From: a virus
Lineage: Duplodnaviria; Heunggongvirae; Uroviricota; Caudoviricetes
Virus record (IMG/VR): IMGVR_UViG_2718218172_000006
Direction: 5' to 3' (one strand)
DNA: 15,331 nucleotides
In this document: one piece after another, positions 2,506-13,926 of the stretch
How positions within the stretch are numbered: position 1 is the first letter of the stretch
Layout of the letters: every line of letters starts with the position of its first letter
Notes under the pieces: model-generated
Databases searched by the model: none
What the model was told of the DNA's origin: nothing
The model's input: only the letters and a program-made list of their open reading frames with translations
Translations under genes and position numbers: made by a program

Positions 2506-2543
2506 GGGGAGCCCGCAGAACTCGGAAAAAATCGTACGCTAAG
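2506..2543. repeat. 38-bp terminal inverted repeat of a Tn21-family transposon (tnpA end)
   Basis: GGGGAGCCCGCAGAACTCGGAAAAAATCGTACGCTAAG at 2506-2543, close to the Tn501/Tn1721-type IR as I remember it. The tnpA stop codon (2539-2541) lies inside it, as is typical for this family. Confidence 0.8.
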
Positions 2544-5505
2544 GTTTTCCGAGCTGCCGCAGCGGCCTGAATTTCCCGTCTTCCAGCTTGCGGCTTTGCC
2601 GCCAAACGTAATCGCCGGTCAGGTTGATGTGCTCCCAGCCCAATGGCGAAAGGTATTGCAGTAACTCAGGATTAACTGGCTTGCCTGCCTCTTCTCGGGC
2701 CTGGGTCGCGCGCTCCAAGTACACGGTGTTCCACAACACGATGGCGGCCGTCACCAGGTTGAGGCCGCTGGCCCGGTAGCGCTGCTGCTCGAAACTCCGA
2801 TCCCTGATCTCGCCGAGGCGGTTGAAGAACACCGCCCTGGCCAGGGAGTTACGCGCCTCGCCCTTGTTCAATCCGGCATGCACGCGGCGACGCAGTTCCA
2901 CGCTTTGCAGCCAATCGAGGATGAACAGCGTGCGCTCGATCCGACCCAGCTCGCGCAGAGCCACGGCCAGGCCGTTCTGGCGCGGGTAGCTGCCAAGCTT
3001 GCGCAGCATCAGCGATGCGGTGACGGTGCCCTGCTTGATCGACGCGGCCAGCCGCAGAATCTCGTCCCAGTGAGCGCAGACGTGCTTGATGTTCAGGGTT
3101 CCGCCGAGCATTGGACGCAGCGTCGGGTAGTCTTGGACGCTATTGGGCACATACAACTTGGTTTCACCGAGGTCGCGGATGCGCGGCGCGAAGCGGAAGC
3201 CCAGCAGGTGCATCAGGGCGAAGACGTGATCGGTGAAGCCAGCGGTGTCGGTGTAGTGCTCCTCGATCCGCAGATCGGACTCGTGGTACAGCAGACCGTC
3301 GAGCACGTAGGTGGAATCACGCACGCCTACATTCACCACGCGGGTGCTGAACGGCGCGTACTGGTCAGAGATGTGGGTGTAGAACAGCCGTCCTGGCTCG
3401 CTACCGTACTTCGGGTTGACGTGGCCGGTGCTCTCGCCTTTACCGCCGGCACGGAAACGCTGGCCATCGGAGGATGAGGTGGTGCCGTCACCCCAGTTGG
3501 CGGCGAAGGCATGCCGGAACTGGCTGTTGACCAGCTCGGCCAGGGCCGTCGAGTAGGTTTCGTCACGGATGTGCCAGGCTTGCAACCAGGACAGCTTGGC
3601 GTAGGTCATGCCCGGACTCGACTCGGCCATTTTGGTCAGGCCGAGGTTGATGGCATCGCCCAGGATCGCCGTTAGCAGTAGCGTCCGGTCTTTCGCCTGT
3701 GCGCCATCCTTCAGGTGCGTGAAGTGGCGGGTGAAGCCCGTCCATTCATCCACATCCATCAGCAGCTCGGTGATCTTGATGCGCGGCAGTAGCTGGCTGG
3801 TCTGGTCGATCAGCGCCTGCGCGGTGTTGGGCACCGCGGAATCCAGCGGGGTGATTTTTAGCCCGGACTCGGTGAGGATGGCATCGGGTAGTTCGTTGTC
3901 CTTTGCCAGTCGGGTGACAGTGGCCAGCTGCTCGTCCAGCAGCTGCAAACGCTCTTCCAGGTACTGGTCGCTGTTCGGGTTGATCGCGAGTGGCAGCGCC
4001 TGTTCCCGCTTGAGTGCGGCGAATTTCTCGGGAGGCAGTAGGTAGTCATCGAAGTCGCGGAACTGCCGCGAGCCTTTGACCCAGATGTCGCCGGAGCGCA
4101 GCGCGTTCTTCAACTCGGACAAGGCGCAGATTTCGTAGAAGCGCCGGTCGATGCCTTCCGGGGTGATCACCAGCGGTTTCCAGCGCGGCTTGATGAAGGC
4201 GGTCGGTGCGTCGGAGGGCACCTTGCGCAGATTATCGGCATTCATCTCGCGTAGGGTCTGAACGGCATCCAGCACGGCTTGCGCTGCCGTCGCGGCTCGG
4301 AGCTGAAGCACCTCCAGAAAGGCTGGGGTGTAGCGGCGTAGCGTAGCGAAGTTCTCGCTGACCAGGTGCAGGTGGTCGAAGGCTTCCGGCCGGGCCAGCA
4401 GCTCGGCCTCAGTGACACTCTGGGTGAACTCGTCCCAGGGAATGACCGCCTCGATGGCGGCGAACGGATCGTCACCGGACTCTTTAGCGTCCAGCAGGGC
4501 CTGGCCGATCTTCGAGTACAGGCGCACCTTGTCATTGATCGCTTTGCCCTGCTTCTGGAACTGCTGCTGATGCTTGTGTTTCGCGCCACTGAACAGCTTG
4601 ACCAGGATGCGGTCGTGCAGATCAACCAGTTCATCGATCACGGTCGCGGTGCTTTCCAGTACCACGGCGACCAGCGTGGCATAGCGCCTCTCCGGTTCGA
4701 ACTTGCCGAGGTCTTGTGGCGTCATCTGCCCGCCCTCGCGGGCGAGCTTCAGCAATCGGTTCTGGTGGATGTGCCGGCCGAGGCTGTCGGGAAGGCCCAC
4801 CAGTTGGAAAATCTTCAGCCGCTCGATGTGCTCGATCATGTGCCGCGAGTTCGGCTTCAGCGGTGATTGCCGCAACCAGGTCAACCAAGTGCTGTTGCTG
4901 CCGGCCTTAATGGTGAGCAGTTCGTCGAGCTTGGCGTGATGCGATGGGTTCAACGGCTCGATCAGGGCGCGATAGACCCGCCGATTGGCGCGTGCAATGG
5001 CCTCCGAACACGCCCGGTCAATAACGCTCAGCGTCGGCAGGATGCGCCGCTTCTGGCGCAAGCTCTCCAGCGCCTGCCCGGCCAGCAGCAAGCCCTTGTC
5101 GGTCTGCTGGGCCAGCTCGGTCAACTCGCGCACCAGGGCGCGGAAGTCCGACAGACCGAACGGGGCCAGTTGCAGGTAGGTGCGCAGTTCCAGAGCGTGC
5201 TCGCGGCGGGTCACGTCGCGCTCACCGTACTTCGCCCAACTCGCGGGGTCGGCTTGGACTTGCTTGGCCACCCACTGGATCACGGGCTCGGGTAGCGCCG
5301 TGTCGTTGCCCAGCGCATAACCAGGGTAGCGCAGCAGGCAGAGCTGCACGGCGAAGCCGAGGCGGTTGCCATCGCCCCGCCGTTGACGGATCAGGGATAG
5401 GTCGGAGTCGTTGAAGGTGTAGTAGCGGATCAGGTCATCCTGGCTTTCTGGCAGCGCAAGCAGGGTGTCGCGCTCCGTAGCCGAGAGAATCGAGCGACGC
5501 GGCAT
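2539..5505 (-). CDS. tnpA: Tn3-superfamily (Tn21 subgroup) transposase TnpA, 988 aa
   Basis: 988-aa ORF starting [37 protein letters not shown]..., with conserved blocks I recall from Tn21/Tn501 TnpA (e.g. [41 protein letters not shown]). Length matches the family. Confidence 0.95.
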
Positions 5506-5508
5506 GGT

Positions 5509-6069
5509 TCAGTCGTCCGTGCGAAGGTACTGGTAGAGGGTTTCACGGCTGATGCCGAACTCGCGTGCGAGCTGAGCCTTCGGCTCGCCGGCAGCGGCCC
5601 GCTGCCGCAACGTGATGGCTTGATCGTCGGAGAGAGCTTTCTTGCGGCCCCGGTAAGCACCGCGCTGCTTGGCCAGGGCGATGCCCTCGCGCTGCCGCTC
5701 GCGGATCAGGGCGCGCTCGAACTCGGCAAAGGCCCCCATGACCGACAACATGAGGTTGGCCATGGGCGAGTCCTCGCCGGTGAACACCAACCCCTCCTTC
5801 AAGAACTCGATGCGCACGCCGCGCTTGGTCAGCCTTTGCACCAGACGGCGCAGATCGTCGAGGTTGCGCGCCAGGCGATCCATGCTGTGCACCACCACGG
5901 TATCGCCTTCGCGGACGAATCCGAGCATGGCTTCCAGCTGCGGGCGCTGGGTGTCCTTGCCCGAGGCCTTGTCGGTGAACAGCTTGCCGATCTCGACCTG
6001 CTCAAGTTGGCGTTCCGGGTTCTGGTCGTAACTGCTGACCCGAACGTAACCGATGCGTTGTCCCTGCAA
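5509..6069 (-). CDS. tnpR: serine recombinase (resolvase) TnpR
   Basis: The track gives 5509-6123 (204 aa), but the conserved resolvase N-terminus starts at QGQRIGYVRVSS. A TTG at 6067-6069 is preceded by GGAGG, giving a ~186-aa protein typical of Tn501/Tn1721 TnpR. The start is uncertain; the ATG at 6123 is the alternative. It sits 3 bp upstream of tnpA on the same strand. Confidence 0.88.
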   Translation of the reverse strand: MQGQRIGYVRVSSYDQNPERQLEQVEIGKLFTDKASGKDTQRPQLEAMLGFVREGDTVVVHSMDRLARNLDDLRRLVQRLTKRGVRIEFLKEGLVFTGEDSPMANLMLSVMGAFAEFERALIRERQREGIALAKQRGAYRGRKKALSDDQAITLRQRAAAGEPKAQLAREFGISRETLYQYLRTDD

Positions 6070-6260
6070 GATGCCTCCATAGGCTGGATGGGCGGTAGGG
6101 CTTACGTTGGTTTTTGGTTCCATTGCGCCCTAAGCCTTGAATTTGTCAGGTTGGAATCTATGACCTTGGCAAGCATGTGTCAAAGAATGTGAAAGCAGAC
6201 TCTATTCTGACGGCGCAGTGTCGTTTTCAGAAGACGGCTGCACTGAACGTCAGAAGCCGA
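6070..6260. promoter_or_regulatory. res (resolution) site region and tnpR promoter, approximate extent
   Basis: By position: in Tn21-family elements the three-subsite res region lies immediately upstream of tnpR. Sequence shows repeated TGTCA-containing dyads (TGTCAGGTTGG…, CATGTGTCAAAG…). Sub-site boundaries not determined. Confidence 0.45.
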
Positions 6261-6602: not shown

Positions 6603-6607
6603 GTCTC

Positions 6608-6763
6608 TTACTCCTCAGGTTCGTAAGCTGTGAAGACAGCGACCTCCGTCTGGCCGGTTCGGATTCGTACCTCGCAGAGGTCTTTCCTCGTTACCAGTGC
6701 CGTCACTATGACGGTTAAACAGATGACGATCAGGGCGATTAACATCGCCTTTTGCTGCTTCAT
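6608..6763 (-). CDS. hokD: Hok/Gef-family small membrane toxin (HokD/RelF-like), 51 aa
   Basis: Not in the track (under 60 aa). My manual translation gives MKQQKAMLIALIVICLTVIVTALVTRKDLCEVRIRTGQTEVAVFTAYEPEE, stop at 6608-6610, with AGGAGA upstream of the ATG. It lies 71 bp downstream of relE, as in the relBEF locus. Confidence 0.85.
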   Translation of the reverse strand: MKQQKAMLIALIVICLTVIVTALVTRKDLCEVRIRTGQTEVAVFTAYEPEE

Positions 6764-8226: not shown

Positions 8227-8240
8227 GTGACAGCCGTATT

Positions 8241-8264
8241 GTGGCCCTCATCGGGCCACTTTTC
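8241..8264 (+). terminator. intrinsic terminator downstream of flxA
   Basis: GTGGCCC-tcatc-GGGCCAC (7-bp perfect stem) followed by TTTTCGCC, 15 nt after the flxA stop. Confidence 0.6.
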
Positions 8265-8313
8265 GCCATCAGCCTTTTCTTTAAAGACATATTATCTTTG
8301 TATCATTTCTGAT

Positions 8314-10162
8314 AGTTAACATTACAAGATATAAGTAATGGACGCACTCCCAATTAGTCTATTTAAATCGCCACGAGTTTAACTGACAACCCATGATCAA
8401 TTATGAATTGCAACTATTTCTGTAGTCACTTTTGTGGGGACAGTCCACAAAACTGCCAACTTCCGCTTCTTGCTCTTAGCGGACATTAGCATAGGCTATT
8501 TACCATAACGCCTCATTACGCGCACCGCCCAGACTGACTCAGCGCGTTTCTGGCATATCCCCGGTAAAACAAGTAACAAACCACCCGAAAATGAACACCA
8601 GAAACGCGACTTAAGAATCTACCCTATGAATGGATATGCACTCAACCGAATCGATCTTGGTTTCAATCTTTTTTATCGGGATCAGGCTTCTTTTTAGGTA
8701 ACTTCGGGGGCTTAACTTGCTGATGACTTTGCGTTCGGCGCGTAAGCCAGGGATGGTCAGCTTTAGGTTTAACATAGTATTTTGAGCGTAAATCAATACG
8801 GGCATTATCCACTCGTTCATGGACACTCTTTTCATCATCCAGTGGTATAGGCTCCGGGCCATCAACATACTTTTCCCAGCCCAGCGCTTTCCCGTCATAC
8901 AGAACGTTAATTTCACCGTCAAAGTTCTCGCATACAGTAACAACCGAATGCCTAAGTCGATATCCCCGGCCCTCACTGCGTACCTGAAACGCACTGCTTT
9001 TGTACTGGAAAGTGAGATTTTTAGACAGAACGCGCTTCGCCTGTAGGCTGAAGATATAACCCAGTTCCTCTTCAGAATGGTGCACATCAAGATGAGCATT
9101 ATCAGTAGTACGAGGCGACGTAGCGAACCGGTTGTTATAGGCTTCAATAAAGGTCGGCAACCATGCATTTGCTGTTTCAATATCACTGATATTCTGAAGC
9201 CGCATTTCTTTGACCAGCCTGTCCTGTAGTGTCTGATTGGCGCGCTCTACCCGCCCTTTTGCCTGCGGGCTGTTGGCATGGATTGGCTCGATGCCCAGTG
9301 TCTTTATCGCACGAGTGAACTGGGTCAGCTCACCTTCCCGCTCTGGGTTATTTACCCTGAATATACTGTGTCTATCAGAGTAGAGAGCGAGCGGTACGCC
9401 ATGATCATTAAGGTAACCCCGGAGGGTTTCCATGTAAGCCCGGGTTGTTTCAGCAGGCACAAAACGCAACGCCATCAACGCACTGGTGGCATCATCAATG
9501 AAAACGATCAGTGTACATCTGGGGCCTCGATTTTCAAACCAGTCATGAGGTGAGCCATCAATCTGGATCAGTTCACCGTAAGATGGTCGTCGCATGCGGC
9601 GTTGATATATACGGGCAATTTTACGACGGCGTTCACGCCATAACCCCTCTTCTATCATCCACTTTCTGAGAGTTTCAACGGATAAAGATAAACCGTGTAT
9701 CTCGCGCAATTTTTCGCACGCAAACGTAGGTCCAAAATCAGCGTAACGGCCTTTGAGGAGTGAAATTACTGTTGCTCTGAATTCAGTAGAAAAGGAATTA
9801 TTAGGACGCTTTCCACGTCGGTGGGAAACCAGACCAGAAGGCCCTTCATTTCTATACCGTTGCACCAGACGTTTAACCTGCCGAATAGAAATGCCAATGC
9901 GTGCCGCAGCTTGTTCCTGAATAATCTGAAGTCGGTGGAGTTCCTTATGACTCATCGTAACAGTCTCTTTGATCATGAAAAATCCCCCAGAGAATTGTCT
10001 GGGGACATTTTAGAATGGTTCAAAGGGGACATTACAGCTTGGTGTTAACAATAGCCTGCTTCTCCGTGCCTTTCGGCACGTAAGAGGCTAACCTACATGT
10101 GTCTAGCATGAAATTGGCCTCAGATTAATGTTAAGCGTCTTGCAGGACGCGTAATGTTAACT
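8314..10162 (-). mobile_element. insertion sequence carrying the DDE transposase; ends uncertain
   Basis: The only candidate terminal repeats I could find by eye are a perfect 12-bp inverted pair, AGTTAACATTAC at 8314-8325 and GTAATGTTAACT at 10151-10162. The true ends may lie inside this span. No target-site duplication identified. Confidence 0.3.
8663..9976 (-). CDS. DDE transposase, rve/integrase-core type (IS481- or ISNCY-like), 437 aa
   Basis: 437-aa ORF with an N-terminal helix-turn-helix region (IGISIRQVKRLVQRYRNEG) and a D…D…E arrangement typical of rve-fold transposases (LIQIDGSPHDW … LALYSDRHSIF … KGRVERANQTLQ). Lysine-rich C-terminal tail. Exact IS family not identified. Confidence 0.8.
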   Translation of the reverse strand: MIKETVTMSHKELHRLQIIQEQAAARIGISIRQVKRLVQRYRNEGPSGLVSHRRGKRPNNSFSTEFRATVISLLKGRYADFGPTFACEKLREIHGLSLSVETLRKWMIEEGLWRERRRKIARIYQRRMRRPSYGELIQIDGSPHDWFENRGPRCTLIVFIDDATSALMALRFVPAETTRAYMETLRGYLNDHGVPLALYSDRHSIFRVNNPEREGELTQFTRAIKTLGIEPIHANSPQAKGRVERANQTLQDRLVKEMRLQNISDIETANAWLPTFIEAYNNRFATSPRTTDNAHLDVHHSEEELGYIFSLQAKRVLSKNLTFQYKSSAFQVRSEGRGYRLRHSVVTVCENFDGEINVLYDGKALGWEKYVDGPEPIPLDDEKSVHERVDNARIDLRSKYYVKPKADHPWLTRRTQSHQQVKPPKLPKKKPDPDKKD

Positions 10163-10310
10163 GGGGCTTTTCTCTATCTGCCGTTGGTGTCCATGCCCGA
10201 GGCAGATAGCCTCAAGCACCCGCAGTCATTCTACTTAACTAAGATTTCCCCGCAAACCGTTTTTGTCCAGCACAGTAAATATCCAACTAAACCAATGGAG
10301 TTCGCTGTAT

Positions 10311-10490
10311 TTACCGCCAGTATTCAATGCACATGACCGCCATGAACACCCCTAAAAAAAGGGCATTTATATATCCAAATATTAATATCAAAACATCAAC
10401 TTTTTCCATATACCTTGCTGTGAAGATGATGGGCATACATGATGCGAACAACCAGAACGCAACAAACAAAAACTGCAATGCGTTTTTCAT
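10311..10490 (-). CDS. small two-helix membrane protein, 59 aa (track ORF 10311-10529 trimmed to the ATG with a ribosome-binding site)
   Basis: ATG at 10488-10490 is preceded by GTAGGAGGAATA-ATG, a near-consensus Shine-Dalgarno. Product MKNALQFLFVAFWLFASCMPIIFTARYMEKVDVLILIFGYINALFLGVFMAVMCIEYWR has two hydrophobic helices. No family recognised. Confidence 0.5.
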   Translation of the reverse strand: MKNALQFLFVAFWLFASCMPIIFTARYMEKVDVLILIFGYINALFLGVFMAVMCIEYWR

Positions 10491-10674
10491 TATTCCTCCT
10501 ACAATCAATGTGCAATTACATTTAAACACACCTCAATTTGGCCGGACATATAAATATCTAAACCAGAAAAAATCACTTACATAGCGTTACAAACTCTTTA
10601 GTCTAAAGGTTCATCGTAAAACATTCCCCATACTTATCAGTCCGTTCCGCGCCAGGTAGCTCATTGCCTTATCT

Positions 10675-10704
10675 GGCAACCTGTAATCAGGTTTCCGCTT
10701 TTTC
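10675..10704 (+). terminator. candidate intrinsic terminator (plus strand)
   Basis: GGCAACCTG-taat-CAGGTTTCC (9-bp stem, one mismatch) followed by GCTTTTT. No convincing plus-strand gene upstream, so the terminated transcript is unknown. Confidence 0.3.
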
Positions 10705-11642
10705 AGTTGGCTGGTCGTTTAACCGACATAGTTAATCCATTAATCTAGTTGCCGGATGTTGGTGGATTTTCGCGTTTTAGTTGTTCATAAAAGTGCACAG
10801 CTTTAACCAGTTCTTCTGATGTAACTGGGACTGGTGAGGCAGTGAATAAGGCCTGAATTTGATAGTTCGGCCTGTCGTTACAATCCTCTTTTTTCGGTAC
10901 ATATTTCCAGTCACCAGACCACTACTTCCCCTGAAAGTCCGTAACGCCTTTTTTCACGTAGCGATATCGCCATGCCACTGGTTTTGCTTGCCCCGCCGTT
11001 TCATGCCCTTCCTGATAATTAATCTCGCTCATTCATCGCCCCACTCATCACAATATGCTTCGACCGGAGTTTTTCCCGCTTCATAGTCATCACGCTAGGA
11101 TTCGACATCAGCAGCACTTCCACCGCGTAACTCACCATAGTCCATTAATAGTTCATCCCGCTCTTCAAAACTGATGTTATATTTAGCTGAACAAAAATCA
11201 GCCACTTTGTTCTTCCTCATCGTCTTTTATTTCGTGGTATGAGTAATTGCAGTAGTTAAAGAAAATTTCTTATGCTCCGTCATGAATTTCCTCAGGTGTT
11301 GCGTCATCGTCCACTTCGAATACATCCTCAAAATCTCCACCAGCTATTCCCGTTTCAATAATAATTTTGAACTTTCGCATTTCACTACCGCCCTTTCGGG
11401 CGGCCTCCTGATGTTCTGAGGGTGCAGAAATCCATCCGGTTAAGGATTAAATTTTATTTACAGAACTGAATTTAATTATTCAGATATACGTATCTGTAGC
11501 CTTACGAATCTACTCACTGGATGCCTCTTTCATAAAAATAATCCAGTGGGTTTTATCGTTTTTTCCCTGTTCGTTGACAGATAACAGGTTTTCTGTCTGT
11601 CAGTGCCAGAATCTGGCTTACCGGTATTTGCGTTTCATTCCA

Positions 11643-11999
11643 TTAAAAAATCAGAACGCCGTGCGGCCTCAACACCCGAAAGGCTTCTTTAAATCTCTGT
11701 CGCGAATCATCACGCCAGGCATCTTTATTCAGCCGTCCATATTTCTTTCCCATCCAGGCGTTATCACCAACACTCTCAAGATGCGGAGGGTCTAATACAA
11801 CCATCGAAAAAGATGCGTCTGCAAATGATAATGCACGAAAATCTGCGATAATGTCAGGGCTGATAATCAAGCGTCTCCCATTGCGTAATGTGTATCCTTC
11901 TTTTCTGATATCGCTGAATATCGCCCGTTCGTCAGACTTATCGAACCAGAACATGCGGCTGCCACAGCACATATCAAGAATGGTTGCCGGTGCACTCAC
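11643..11999 (-). CDS. DNA N6-adenine methyltransferase-like protein, short (118 aa), possibly truncated
   Basis: An N-terminal SAM-binding-like motif (LDMCCGSRMFWFDK) is followed by a DPPH motif (VVLDPPHLE), resembling the DPPY/DPPW catalytic motif of amino-methyltransferases. The GTG start overlaps the stop of the upstream gene by 4 bp. The frame stays open for 29 more codons beyond the TAA stop, suggesting a nonsense mutation or an unusually short enzyme. Confidence 0.5.
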   Translation of the reverse strand: MSAPATILDMCCGSRMFWFDKSDERAIFSDIRKEGYTLRNGRRLIISPDIIADFRALSFADASFSMVVLDPPHLESVGDNAWMGKKYGRLNKDAWRDDSRQRFKEAFRVLRPHGVLIF

Positions 12000-12418
12000 T
12001 GCGCCACGTCCTGAAAATTACCCTGATAGAAAGCCAGTATGCGCTGCATAACTTCGCTCTTCCGGCACTCGCGACAGATTATGTTTAGGCGACTGTCGTA
12101 GCGACGTATTTCTCCGTCAGGTGATGACCAGATAAGGTCCGGATCAACCACAGCAGGTTTCTTCACCTTTGCCCTCGAGAGTTTTTTGCGGGCGTTTTGC
12201 CAGTCCTTACGCGCCTGTTCAGAGGGGAATAACCCGTAGCCGGAGTTGTATACATCGCCACTGGCTACCAGCTCTCTGGCAAGAACGCTCATCAGATATC
12301 TAGTCGCACCTGTTTTAGCTTCCAGTTGCCGTAACGTCTCACGGCCGCTCTGGCGCACGAGTTCCACCACCTGCCATTTAATTTTTTCCCGCTCTTCTTG
12401 TGTAAAAACTTTTGCCAC
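11996..12418 (-). CDS. hypothetical prophage protein with a putative helix-turn-helix (140 aa)
   Basis: 140-aa track ORF with a GTG start. It has an HTH-like segment (ETLRQLEAKTGATRYLMSVLAREL) and a basic central region, and is translationally coupled to the downstream methyltransferase-like gene. Family not recognised. Confidence 0.55.
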   Translation of the reverse strand: MAKVFTQEEREKIKWQVVELVRQSGRETLRQLEAKTGATRYLMSVLARELVASGDVYNSGYGLFPSEQARKDWQNARKKLSRAKVKKPAVVDPDLIWSSPDGEIRRYDSRLNIICRECRKSEVMQRILAFYQGNFQDVAQ

Positions 12419-12458
12419 AAGTCCCCCTTAAAATTACCTCATGACCTGAAATCAACAC

Positions 12459-13424
12459 TTATCCTCTGAAACCAGGCGGAATTTCTGTATCCGGTTCAGA
12501 AATATGATTAACACAACGCTGTACAGGTGAACGTCCCAGGCGGATGACCAGTTCGTCCCATTTTTCGCGGAGCTTTGACGGGCTCATGATGTTTTTTACC
12601 CAGAATGGATCTCGCTGAACCCGACCAAACATTTCGCAAATTTGTCTGTGGCTTCTGCCATCCAGCATCCGCATTGTGCGCACGTCATTGGCCCAGGCAG
12701 TCCAGTTAGGCTCTTTTGGTCGCATGATCTCGCCATCATCACTGGCTGCCTGTTCGTAGAGACCCACGATCCGCCCCCAGATCCACTGCGCACACGCCAA
12801 ATCCTCCCTGCTACCCCACTGGCGTTTTTTCGCACTAAACACAACCGCGTCGGAGTTCCGGGTTAAAAAATCCTGTTCAGTCGTCTGCGGGTCCGGTTGC
12901 GAAGCTTCCGGACGAAAAGTGTTTTTATTCTCTGTAGTAATCTCTGTTGTATTCTCTGTAAGATCATCAGGCCATTTTGACCCGATGACATTGGGTCGTT
13001 TTGAACCAATGGAGCGTTTCATTTTGACCTCTTCCATCGTGTCATTTTGACCTGATGGAGCGGCGCATTTTGAACCGATGGATTCGCTCAATTTGCCACC
13101 ATCTAAAAGCTCGCTCCCATAGTTGATCGTGTAGAAATTGGTCATATCGCGCTTTGATTTATTGAGCTTTTCACAACGCAAAAGCCCCAGCGTTTTCAGA
13201 CTTGCAAACGCGCGCTTTAACGTTGACTCTGACCAGAATGGGAACTGTTCCAGCCATTGTTCCGTTGTGTTATAAATCCAGCGAACACCATCACATTCCA
13301 TGCCGGAGTTGGTATCTCTCAACCAGTAGTGCAGTTGTTGCAAAACAATGGCTTCGTTTAAGCCAATTTTCATTGCCAGCTGCGTGTTTATAACCAGTGG
13401 GCGTTCAGCAAAAAGAAGGCTCAT
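12459..13424 (-). CDS. lambda O-like replication initiator (replisome organiser) with an embedded candidate origin
   Basis: Track ORF 12459-13478 trimmed to the first ATG (13422-13424). It sits where a lambdoid O gene would, downstream of the Cro-like dicC. The N-terminal region looks like a DNA-binding domain, and the central linker is encoded by five direct DNA repeats followed by an A+T-rich stretch, as in ori-lambda. This is a functional inference; similarity not verified. Confidence 0.6.
   Translation of the reverse strand: MSLLFAERPLVINTQLAMKIGLNEAIVLQQLHYWLRDTNSGMECDGVRWIYNTTEQWLEQFPFWSESTLKRAFASLKTLGLLRCEKLNKSKRDMTNFYTINYGSELLDGGKLSESIGSKCAAPSGQNDTMEEVKMKRSIGSKRPNVIGSKWPDDLTENTTEITTENKNTFRPEASQPDPQTTEQDFLTRNSDAVVFSAKKRQWGSREDLACAQWIWGRIVGLYEQAASDDGEIMRPKEPNWTAWANDVRTMRMLDGRSHRQICEMFGRVQRDPFWVKNIMSPSKLREKWDELVIRLGRSPVQRCVNHISEPDTEIPPGFRG
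12973..13083. repeat. five iteron-like direct repeats (~23-bp period) inside the O-like gene
   Basis: Plus strand: cATTTTGACCCGATGaca (12973), cGTTTTGAACCAATGGAG (12997), tcATTTTGACCtcttcca (13019), tcATTTTGACCTGATGGAG (13042), gcATTTTGAACCGATGGAt (13065). The adjacent A+T-rich 12901-12960 contains ATTCTCTGTA twice. Confidence 0.6.
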
Positions 13425-13926
13425 AATTCCATCCAGCTTTTTGTTGGTATTGCTGTCGATACGCAAGTTTGAAAGCAATTGCTTTTTCTATAAGTTCGTC
13501 AGTTTCACGATCCACTACGGCAGGATCAGCAAAAAGCAGTCCGGACTCCACCACATCGCCATATTCTTTGTTTAACCCGGCGATCATGCACGTGATGCTT
13601 TTTCCGTCAGTAATTTCACGATACAACCTGAAATCATTAATCCGGATAGCCTCCATAATTGCAGGCACTAGCGCCGTGAACTTTTCACGCTTATCCCTGG
13701 TGTCGATAGCCTTCCAGCGTTCAAATATCTTCACTCGATTAACGCCAAGCGCTCGCTGATCAATCGCGCCACCTTCATATGTGACACGCTGAACATCGAT
13801 GTTCGGGCGCTCTTTCAAAGCCCAGAATGCTTCAGTGATTAATATCGTCGCCTGCTCCTGTGTCATTCCTGGTCGACATATCCAGGCATCCAGAGCCTCA
13901 CGAGCCTGTTCAGGAGTGATTTTCAT
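13405..13926 (-). CDS. hypothetical prophage early protein (173 aa)
   Basis: 173-aa ORF starting at ATG 13924-13926. It overlaps the dicC stop by 17 bp and the O-like gene start by ~20 bp. It sits where a lambdoid cII-like gene would; no family recognised. Confidence 0.5.
   Translation of the reverse strand: MKITPEQAREALDAWICRPGMTQEQATILITEAFWALKERPNIDVQRVTYEGGAIDQRALGVNRVKIFERWKAIDTRDKREKFTALVPAIMEAIRINDFRLYREITDGKSITCMIAGLNKEYGDVVESGLLFADPAVVDRETDELIEKAIAFKLAYRQQYQQKAGWNYEPSFC

Follow-up and report, generated by a model that had tools for sequence, protein, structure and literature searches.

The stretch of DNA analysed here, called the window throughout, comprises 15,331 nt of the IMG/VR virus record IMGVR_UViG_2718218172_000006 (Duplodnaviria; Heunggongvirae; Uroviricota; Caudoviricetes) and is a Qin-type lambdoid prophage. 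On its minus strand lies a small open reading frame, named smORF (10311-10490), that runs from an ATG at 10490-10488 to a TAA at 10313-10311 and specifies, in 59 codons plus the stop, the protein MKNALQFLFVAFWLFASCMPIIFTARYMEKVDVLILIFGYINALFLGVFMAVMCIEYWR. Two helices are predicted in it (helix 1, residues 2-24; helix 2, residues 31-58), the first of which includes a lipobox-like motif (LFAS|C) ending in Cys18. The smORF very probably represents a real protein-coding gene, or one that was such until recently, since a comparison with a diverged sister family in E. coli, which shares its length and frame, is decisive when judged against simulated divergence.

The start of the smORF is marked by GTAGGAGGAATAATG, in which the Shine–Dalgarno (SD) sequence AGGAGG (10500-10495, minus strand; GGGGGA in a minority of alleles) is separated by a 4-nt spacer from the ATG. 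AGGAGG is rare in the 15.3-kb window: there are four copies in total, counting both strands. Upon folding of 160 nt of leader sequence, the SD was unpaired in the minimum free energy structure as well as in the centroid structure, and the predicted structure did not exceed that of shuffled sequences (z = +1.3). The near-perfect ribosome-binding site reported in the initial annotation (made from the letters of the sequence) is thus borne out. The leader proper (10491-10610, minus strand; 120 nt) spans from the stop of a decayed upstream gene to the smORF ATG, and neither a match to the sigma-70 consensus nor any significant RNA structure was found in it by scanning and folding.

The initial annotation had placed a 59-aa protein at 10311-10529. 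The 59-aa gene stands, albeit at 10311-10490, while the longer interval corresponds to a 72-aa reading from a GTG, which we rejected: the extension lacks conservation, and a stop interrupts it in the sister locus. There, an in-frame TAA occurs six codons 5′ of the ATG, and the 59-aa form starting with ATG is therefore the conserved form.

Sister Family and Evidence for Coding

An exhaustive phmmer search of 1.84 billion representatives identified a second protein of 59 aa (P0081), which aligns without gaps over residues 1-59 with 41% identity (E = 1.2e-8). Its common form, P0086 (MRKILMYLCISIWIVISCVPIILTSEYLTEASIMALMFGHANALCIGVFISIIYIECWR), occurs in more than 1000 contigs and in 1045 of the 5426 complete E. 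coli genomes; carriers among the B2 E. coli include Nissle 1917, ATCC 25922, LF82 and ST131, where it bears the label “hypothetical/membrane protein”. In Nissle 1917, the sister locus, the decayed remnant of a prophage at the Rac site, is flanked by ttcA with an integrase fragment on one side and by uspF with a frameshifted gene for a metal ABC permease on the other. No ORF other than the sister gene (8230-8409 in the extracted locus, L088) exceeds 45 aa in a section of some 1.2 kb (7572-8797 in L088) without annotation by the Prokaryotic Genome Annotation Pipeline (PGAP).

The coding sequences of the two families are 59% identical (58/69/47% by codon position), with pN of 0.35 and pS of 0.70, i.e., a dN/dS of about 0.24. 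The sense frame alone is open in both families; the other five frames are stopped in the sister locus. When the 74 substitutions were placed at random, the frame remained open in 1.85% of 20,000 simulations, and the observed BLOSUM62 score of 145 was reached in none of them (mean 74, maximum 123; p < 5e-5). In an alignment of six sequences, the invariant columns are M1, L5, L8, W13, S17, C18, P20, I21, I22, T24, L36, F38, G39, N42, A43, L44, V48, F49, I55, E56, W58 and R59, while Y27 and G47 are each retained in five of the six. Apart from their length and gapless alignment, the window protein and P0086 have in common W13, the motifs SC-PII-T, FG-NAL-VF and IE-WR, and agreement with the lipobox rule at Cys18, and in both loci hok sequence comes next in the same orientation. 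The sister differs in its setting (the decayed remnant between ttcA and uspF), its weak SD, its acidic loop (neutral in the window protein) and in having but a C-terminal fragment of hok beside it.

Within the Qin-type family, 27 distinct alleles from IMG/VR and other loci were compared. Variable sites number 5 in the 180 nt of the ORF, 24 in the 207 nt upstream, 37 in the 260 nt downstream and 16 in the immediately adjacent 210 non-coding nt.

Genomic Context: Early Operon, hok/sok and Insertion Sequence

In the annotated copy of ATCC 8739, the gene order is dicA, dicC, a YdaT-family gene, a replication-type protein gene, a DUF977 gene, a methyltransferase gene, two decayed small genes, the transposase gene of an ISNCY insertion sequence (IS), ydfW, flxA, ydfV, relBE and hokD; a Pfam scan of the window supports DUF977, YdaT and the transposase. 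The genes in this string (dicC, ydaT, an O-like gene, those for DUF977 and the methyltransferase, and nin-like genes) belong to the cro-side, rightward operon, and not to an “early-left” string as had been proposed initially. Tentatively, and as one part of the overall interpretation given below, we take the smORF to be the final gene of the variable accessory (nin-like) block in the rightward (dicC/cro-side, pR-equivalent) early operon of lambdoid prophages of the Qin/Rac type, with its native place directly upstream of a hok/sok locus. The gene preceding it in the nin region (10611-11032, minus strand) is decayed by a frameshift and an internal stop and figures as a PGAP pseudogene in ATCC 8739.

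Downstream, a spacer (10222-10310, minus strand) separates the smORF stop from the start of the hok mRNA. It contains a putative hok promoter, recognised by reading the sequence (-35, TTGCGG at 10255-10250; 16-nt spacer; -10, TAGAAT at 10233-10228), and a scan found no terminator between the smORF stop and that promoter. The hok mRNA start near 10221 (GGGTGCTTGAGG...) and its promoter are what we presume them to be, partly from the 5′ end of R1 hok. The hok/sok leader remnant follows (10051-10221, minus strand; mok ATG at 10109-10107), and the Rfam sok model RF01794 matches 10050-10221 on the smORF strand with 104 bits (gathering score 59). The remnant is truncated by an ISNCY/IS1202-like element (8421-10050, minus strand; firmly placed at its right end, 10050, but approximately at its left, about 8421), whose transposase ORF (8663-9976) is full length (437 aa). 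The junction at 10051|10050 (...gcaggctAT|tgttaacacc) falls within the ATG of hok, whose coding region has been lost. Consequently, the smORF is not directly next to the transposase insertion, as the initial annotation had it: 260 bp of hok/sok leader sequence intervene between its stop and the IS. The hok/sok locus of the window has, as it were, been decapitated, with its promoter, leader and mok start left in place and its toxin ORF lost.

The IS-free phage vB_EcoS-640R1 exhibits the native layout: the smORF, a 90-nt spacer and a complete mok/hok. Indeed, an intact hok, encoding a Hok protein of 51 aa, lies 3′ of the smORF in every IS-free locus whose sequence covers the hok end. In the sister locus, a hok remnant of 62-66 nt, 80% identical to the C-terminal half of hok and with an in-frame stop codon, is situated 55 nt past the stop of the sister gene; the order smORF, then hok, is therefore older than the divergence of the two families. 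We further noted that the part of the hok leader with the mok start and Sok target (10068-10127, minus strand) exists as three sharply distinct haplotypes, with 18 variable sites in 60 nt (loci L003-L085), the remainder of the module being near-identical. Differing specificities of Sok, or recombination among alleles of hok, may lie behind these haplotypes.

In K-12 Qin, 4.8 kb corresponding to 8848-13646 of the window are deleted, from inside the ISNCY transposase gene to inside the ydaT-like gene (junction at 17358/17359 in locus L091), and tblastn yields no match to the smORF protein there, in agreement with the initial impression that K-12 Qin has nothing like it. Because of this deletion, the K-12 “ydfW” is a C-terminal fragment of the transposase gene and “ydfX” a fragment of the YdaT-family gene.

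Distribution and Annotation

A 190-nt segment with the ORF is present in 1567 of the 5426 complete E. coli genomes (about 29%), at an identity of at least 97.4%. In an even-step sample of 60 records, 58 have it full-length and ungapped, the other two showing a 1-nt gap and a truncation, respectively. Conservation in related prophages, upon which the initial annotation had made its proposal depend, is thus evident from these genomes and from the sister family. Word-indexed protein searches, profile searches and scans of GTDB, IMG/VR, phage and plasmid sequences did not add a third family.

No RefSeq feature underlies the smORF in any of the 60 listed records, PGAP making no call there, and GenBank submitters label its product “hypothetical” or “membrane protein”. 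The smORF occurs in three phage records (PhiR42_1, 640R1 and 813R8). An antisense ORF of 85 aa (10327-10584, plus strand) is annotated in its place, as “hornerin” in vB_EcoS-640R1 and as “hypothetical protein” in PhiR42_1, and in 813R8 a “hornerin” label lies over the match. We rejected this antisense ORF as a gene: it has stops in the sister locus and lacks an SD, and the “hornerin” call is almost certainly a mis-call.

A run of seven T residues within the smORF (10360-10354, minus strand) is a slippage-prone homopolymer and the site of frameshifts in database alleles. Alleles ending in ...NALFFRGVHGGHVH (55 aa; P0022, P0024 and P0025) are such frameshifts in the T7 run (10354-10360), be they slippage variants or sequencing errors. 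One further locus (L086; CP178302.1, 2940-3260) was set aside: it has three 1-nt deletions, located at short runs of bases, in an assembly that looks prone to indels. It also features a 3-nt insertion and a destroyed SD. Given where the deletions fall, assembly error is as likely as true decay in this copy.

Predicted Product and Comparison with Known Proteins

The smORF protein is strongly hydrophobic (grand average of hydropathy 1.27), with two hydrophobic stretches in a Kyte–Doolittle plot. AlphaFold2, run on the six-sequence alignment, predicted a helix (2-24), a loop (25-30) and a second helix (31-58), with a mean predicted local distance difference test score of 71; that is, two hydrophobic helices of transmembrane (TM) length connected by a short polar loop. 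The tiny protein with two hydrophobic helices that was first noticed is therefore supported, as a prediction, by hydropathy and modelling alike. By the positive-inside rule, the product would be oriented N-in/C-in, its N-terminus carrying K or RK and its loop being acidic in the sister family but uncharged overall in the Qin-type one. One face of helix 2, G39-x2-N42-A43-x3-G47, appears to be the type of surface that drives tight helix packing.

Alternatively, residues 1-17 could be a lipoprotein signal peptide, in which case the mature product would be a lipid-anchored, single-pass peptide of 42 aa. The PROSITE rule PS51257 specifies K/R within the first seven residues, an uncharged h-region and [LIVMFWSTAG]2-[LIVMFYSTAGCQ]-[AGS]-C with the Cys at 15-35; both families agree with it (LFAS-C18 and VIS-C18), as do 6.7% of shuffled helix-1 sequences. 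The residues right after Cys18 are hydrophobic, which is atypical for mature lipoproteins. Cor/Llp, the entericidins and colicin lysis proteins resemble the smORF protein in their PS51257-type N-terminus and similar precursor size, but the latter is hydrophobic after Cys18, continues with a full TM helix and matches none of these families. Between the two forms, we lean modestly towards the hairpin.

Sequence searches of Pfam, PHROG, NCBIfam, PADLOC and PDB returned nothing above threshold for the smORF protein, which accords with its not having been recognised in the initial annotation. No family was hit in PADLOC, no defence or exclusion model in Pfam (Imm included), and neither HOK_GEF nor another toxin family in Pfam or NCBIfam. 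A Foldseek comparison with viral structures gave no match at E < 0.9, as is expected for a generic hairpin. For the sister protein, there were weak matches only, to phrog_6298 and to DUF4212/TIGR03647. The small subunit of sodium:solute symporters (DUF4212; PF13937, TIGR03647) is likewise a small two-helix membrane protein; the alignment with the sister protein is weak (residues 4-56) and scores below the cut-offs (13.9 versus 30 bits and 14.5 versus 26 bits), while the window protein has no match to DUF4212 and no symporter gene lies next to the smORF. Composition probably accounts for the resemblance.

Type I toxins of the Hok/Gef kind are, like the smORF product, small, hydrophobic, prophage-borne and associated with the inner membrane, and in both families the hok gene is the neighbour. 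Hok, however, has a single TM helix with a Cys-containing periplasmic tail and an elaborately folded mRNA that is targeted by the antisense RNA Sok, whereas the smORF specifies two hydrophobic segments, has no detectable antisense promoter and has no Pfam HOK_GEF match. Concerning the hallmarks of type I antitoxin control, crude scans found no conserved antisense promoter, and the smORF leader is unstructured with its SD free. GhoT, the 57-aa, two-helix membrane toxin of the type V system GhoST, is similar in size and in its predicted two-helix inner-membrane hairpin; it differs from the smORF product in that there is no sequence relationship (no Pfam match at E <= 10), no adjacent gene for a GhoS-like antitoxin and an operon context in a prophage. 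Small membrane proteins of prophages form a familiar class, to which the smORF product adds an uncharacterised member of narrow distribution.

Proposed Role and Rival Explanations

Crude consensus scans detected neither an own promoter nor flanking terminators for the smORF in either family, and the smORF would therefore be cotranscribed with the upstream early genes once repression by DicA is lifted and be translated efficiently. Its product would enter the inner membrane N-in/C-in as a helical hairpin with a periplasmic loop of some seven residues or, alternatively, be cleaved and lipidated at Cys18. The helix 2 face formed by G39, N42, A43 and G47 would pack tightly, either in self-association or against a host membrane protein. 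We suggest that the product acts as a kil-type effector on the host membrane, disturbing membrane integrity, energetics or a membrane protein during phage development, and that its overexpression would inhibit growth, as with DicB, YdfD and Hok, its neighbours in the prophage. To this chain as a whole, i.e., a genuine gene for a 59-aa inner-membrane protein, expressed from the early operon and acting as a kil-type effector, we accord slightly less than an even chance.

Several observations weigh against it. The SD reads GGGGGA in 6 of the 27 alleles counted and in 20 of the 82 loci for which upstream sequence is available, and that of the sister gene is weak (GGGA). The promoter scan was a crude consensus match, so that the smORF may yet have a promoter of its own. 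In the protein, profile and sequence scans mentioned above, no hosts beyond E. coli and Shigella were found, and the alleles in databases include ones disrupted by frameshifts in the T7 run or by IS insertions. Within the Qin-type family, the five substitutions (A16V, V31I, I37M, Y40H and L44I) are nonsynonymous and none is synonymous, counts too small to separate constraint from neutrality; changes that are all nonsynonymous fit relaxed constraint in defective prophages. The peptide was not found in the literature searched, nor in the Sakai Ribo-seq and small-gene supplements. Finally, it is solely the anatomy of the protein and the analogy to neighbouring genes that point to an effector role and to toxicity on overexpression.

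The smORF might be a chance ORF in T-rich, AT-rich DNA from which no protein is made. Its DNA has 37% GC with T at 52% of the second codon positions, and such AT-rich local composition by itself favours hydrophobic-looking ORFs; moreover, PGAP does not call the gene, some annotators choose the antisense frame, and synonymous polymorphism is lacking. This explanation is nevertheless largely refuted by the sister family, which has the same length and frame with change concentrated at third positions, closes the antisense frame and departs from the simulations (p < 5e-5); with a perfect SD at the right distance in an open leader besides, we deem it very unlikely. Somewhat less so, but still unlikely, is that the smORF is a silent relic, real in the ancestral phage but functionless now and drifting towards a pseudogene in a defective Qin, a scenario that may hold alongside the others. 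The prophage has been invaded by an IS and a Tn3-family transposon, the nin genes near the smORF are pseudogenes, and the changes within the family, the frameshifted and IS-interrupted alleles and the degraded SD in some of them would all suit such decay. On the other hand, an indel-free copy persists in 58 of the 60 evenly sampled genomes, the ORF is less diverse (5 in 180 sites) than the adjacent non-coding 210 nt (16 sites), and the sister copy is intact in 1045 genomes. A function in lysis timing, as a holin, a pinholin or an antiholin-like protein, appears most improbable. Like class II holins and the pinholin S21 of phage 21, the smORF product has two predicted TM segments, a putative N-in/C-in topology and a small-x3-small-x3-small face on helix 2 (G39-x3-A43-x3-G47), reminiscent of the glycine zipper of S21. 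But the lysis cassette (essD-ydfR-rrrQ-rzpQ) lies past Q, in the ATCC 8739 copy at a distance of several kb; only the four residues EYWR follow helix 2, so that a charged C-terminal tail is lacking; helix 1, being strongly hydrophobic, does not resemble a signal-anchor-release (SAR) segment; a dual-start motif is absent; and the search of holin families recommended at the outset gave no match in Pfam or PHROG at E <= 10.

Two explanations draw on the company the smORF keeps. It could encode a protective factor expressed in the lysogen from a weak promoter of its own and serving superinfection exclusion or anti-phage defence by blocking DNA entry or a receptor or transport step; T4 Imm and HK97 gp15 are models for the blocking of incoming phages. 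In favour of this, the smORF resides in an accessory hotspot with hok/sok, relBE-hokD and flxA, its sister is the sole intact ORF in a decayed remnant of about 1.2 kb kept by 1045 genomes, as would fit domestication, and the lipobox-like motif recalls the lipoprotein exclusion factors Cor and Llp. We nonetheless judge it unlikely: there is no upstream promoter consensus in either family and no match in PADLOC or to Pfam Imm, the nin region is not the site of known lambdoid exclusion genes, and an ORF of 180 nt at low divergence can persist without selection. Still less probable is that the smORF and hok/sok form one cassette, in which the smORF product would modulate the insertion or toxicity of Hok, or read-through would control the hok mRNA. 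The order of the two genes is common to both diverged families and no terminator occurs from the smORF to the hok promoter; but mEp460 and 689R5 carry hok in the same slot without the smORF, which is found in only 3 of 110 phage records with this hok, the smORF is intact where hok is destroyed (by the IS in the window and in the B2 remnant), and classical hok/sok works without a protein partner. A broader proposal, which we likewise consider unlikely, is that the two families represent a previously unrecognised class of small membrane (lipo)proteins of E. coli prophages, with a lipobox signal and a single C-terminal TM helix bearing a conserved Asn/small-residue face, working with Hok or domesticated as a protective factor. 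If true, a Hok-linked or protective role would account for the smORF alone staying intact in the B2 remnant at the Rac site.

Annotation routinely overlooks small hydrophobic proteins, and the smORF is a case in point, being without RefSeq annotation in every listed record. Together with its sister family, it is present in a sizeable fraction of E. coli, among them strains used as references, probiotics and pathogens (ATCC 8739, ATCC 25922, Nissle 1917, LF82 and ST131), and small membrane proteins of prophages often prove to act as toxins, as exclusion factors or by modulating host membrane machines. The practical gain is a correction of annotation and a candidate for small-protein studies, rather than a new principle.

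Additional Features of the Window

A perfect 13-bp palindrome, CTTTAGaCTAAAG (10596-10608), is situated just past the stop of the gene upstream of the smORF and does not vary among Qin-type alleles. Its counterpart in the sister locus reads CTTCAGtCTGAAG, both arms having changed together. The palindrome may bind a protein or form a small hairpin. On the strand opposite the smORF, a weak terminator-like hairpin (10678-10693, plus strand), consisting of AACCTGtaatCAGGTT followed by TCCGCTTTTT, lies at the upstream boundary of the conserved module; no plus-strand gene or promoter that it might serve was found.

At 2539-6123 and about 6608-6763 (both minus strand), the window also holds a Tn3-family transposon, which encodes a 988-aa transposase with a DDE_Tnp_Tn3 domain and a 204-aa resolvase, adjoining hokD/relBE. 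The homology of the window with K-12 Qin starts at 6603.

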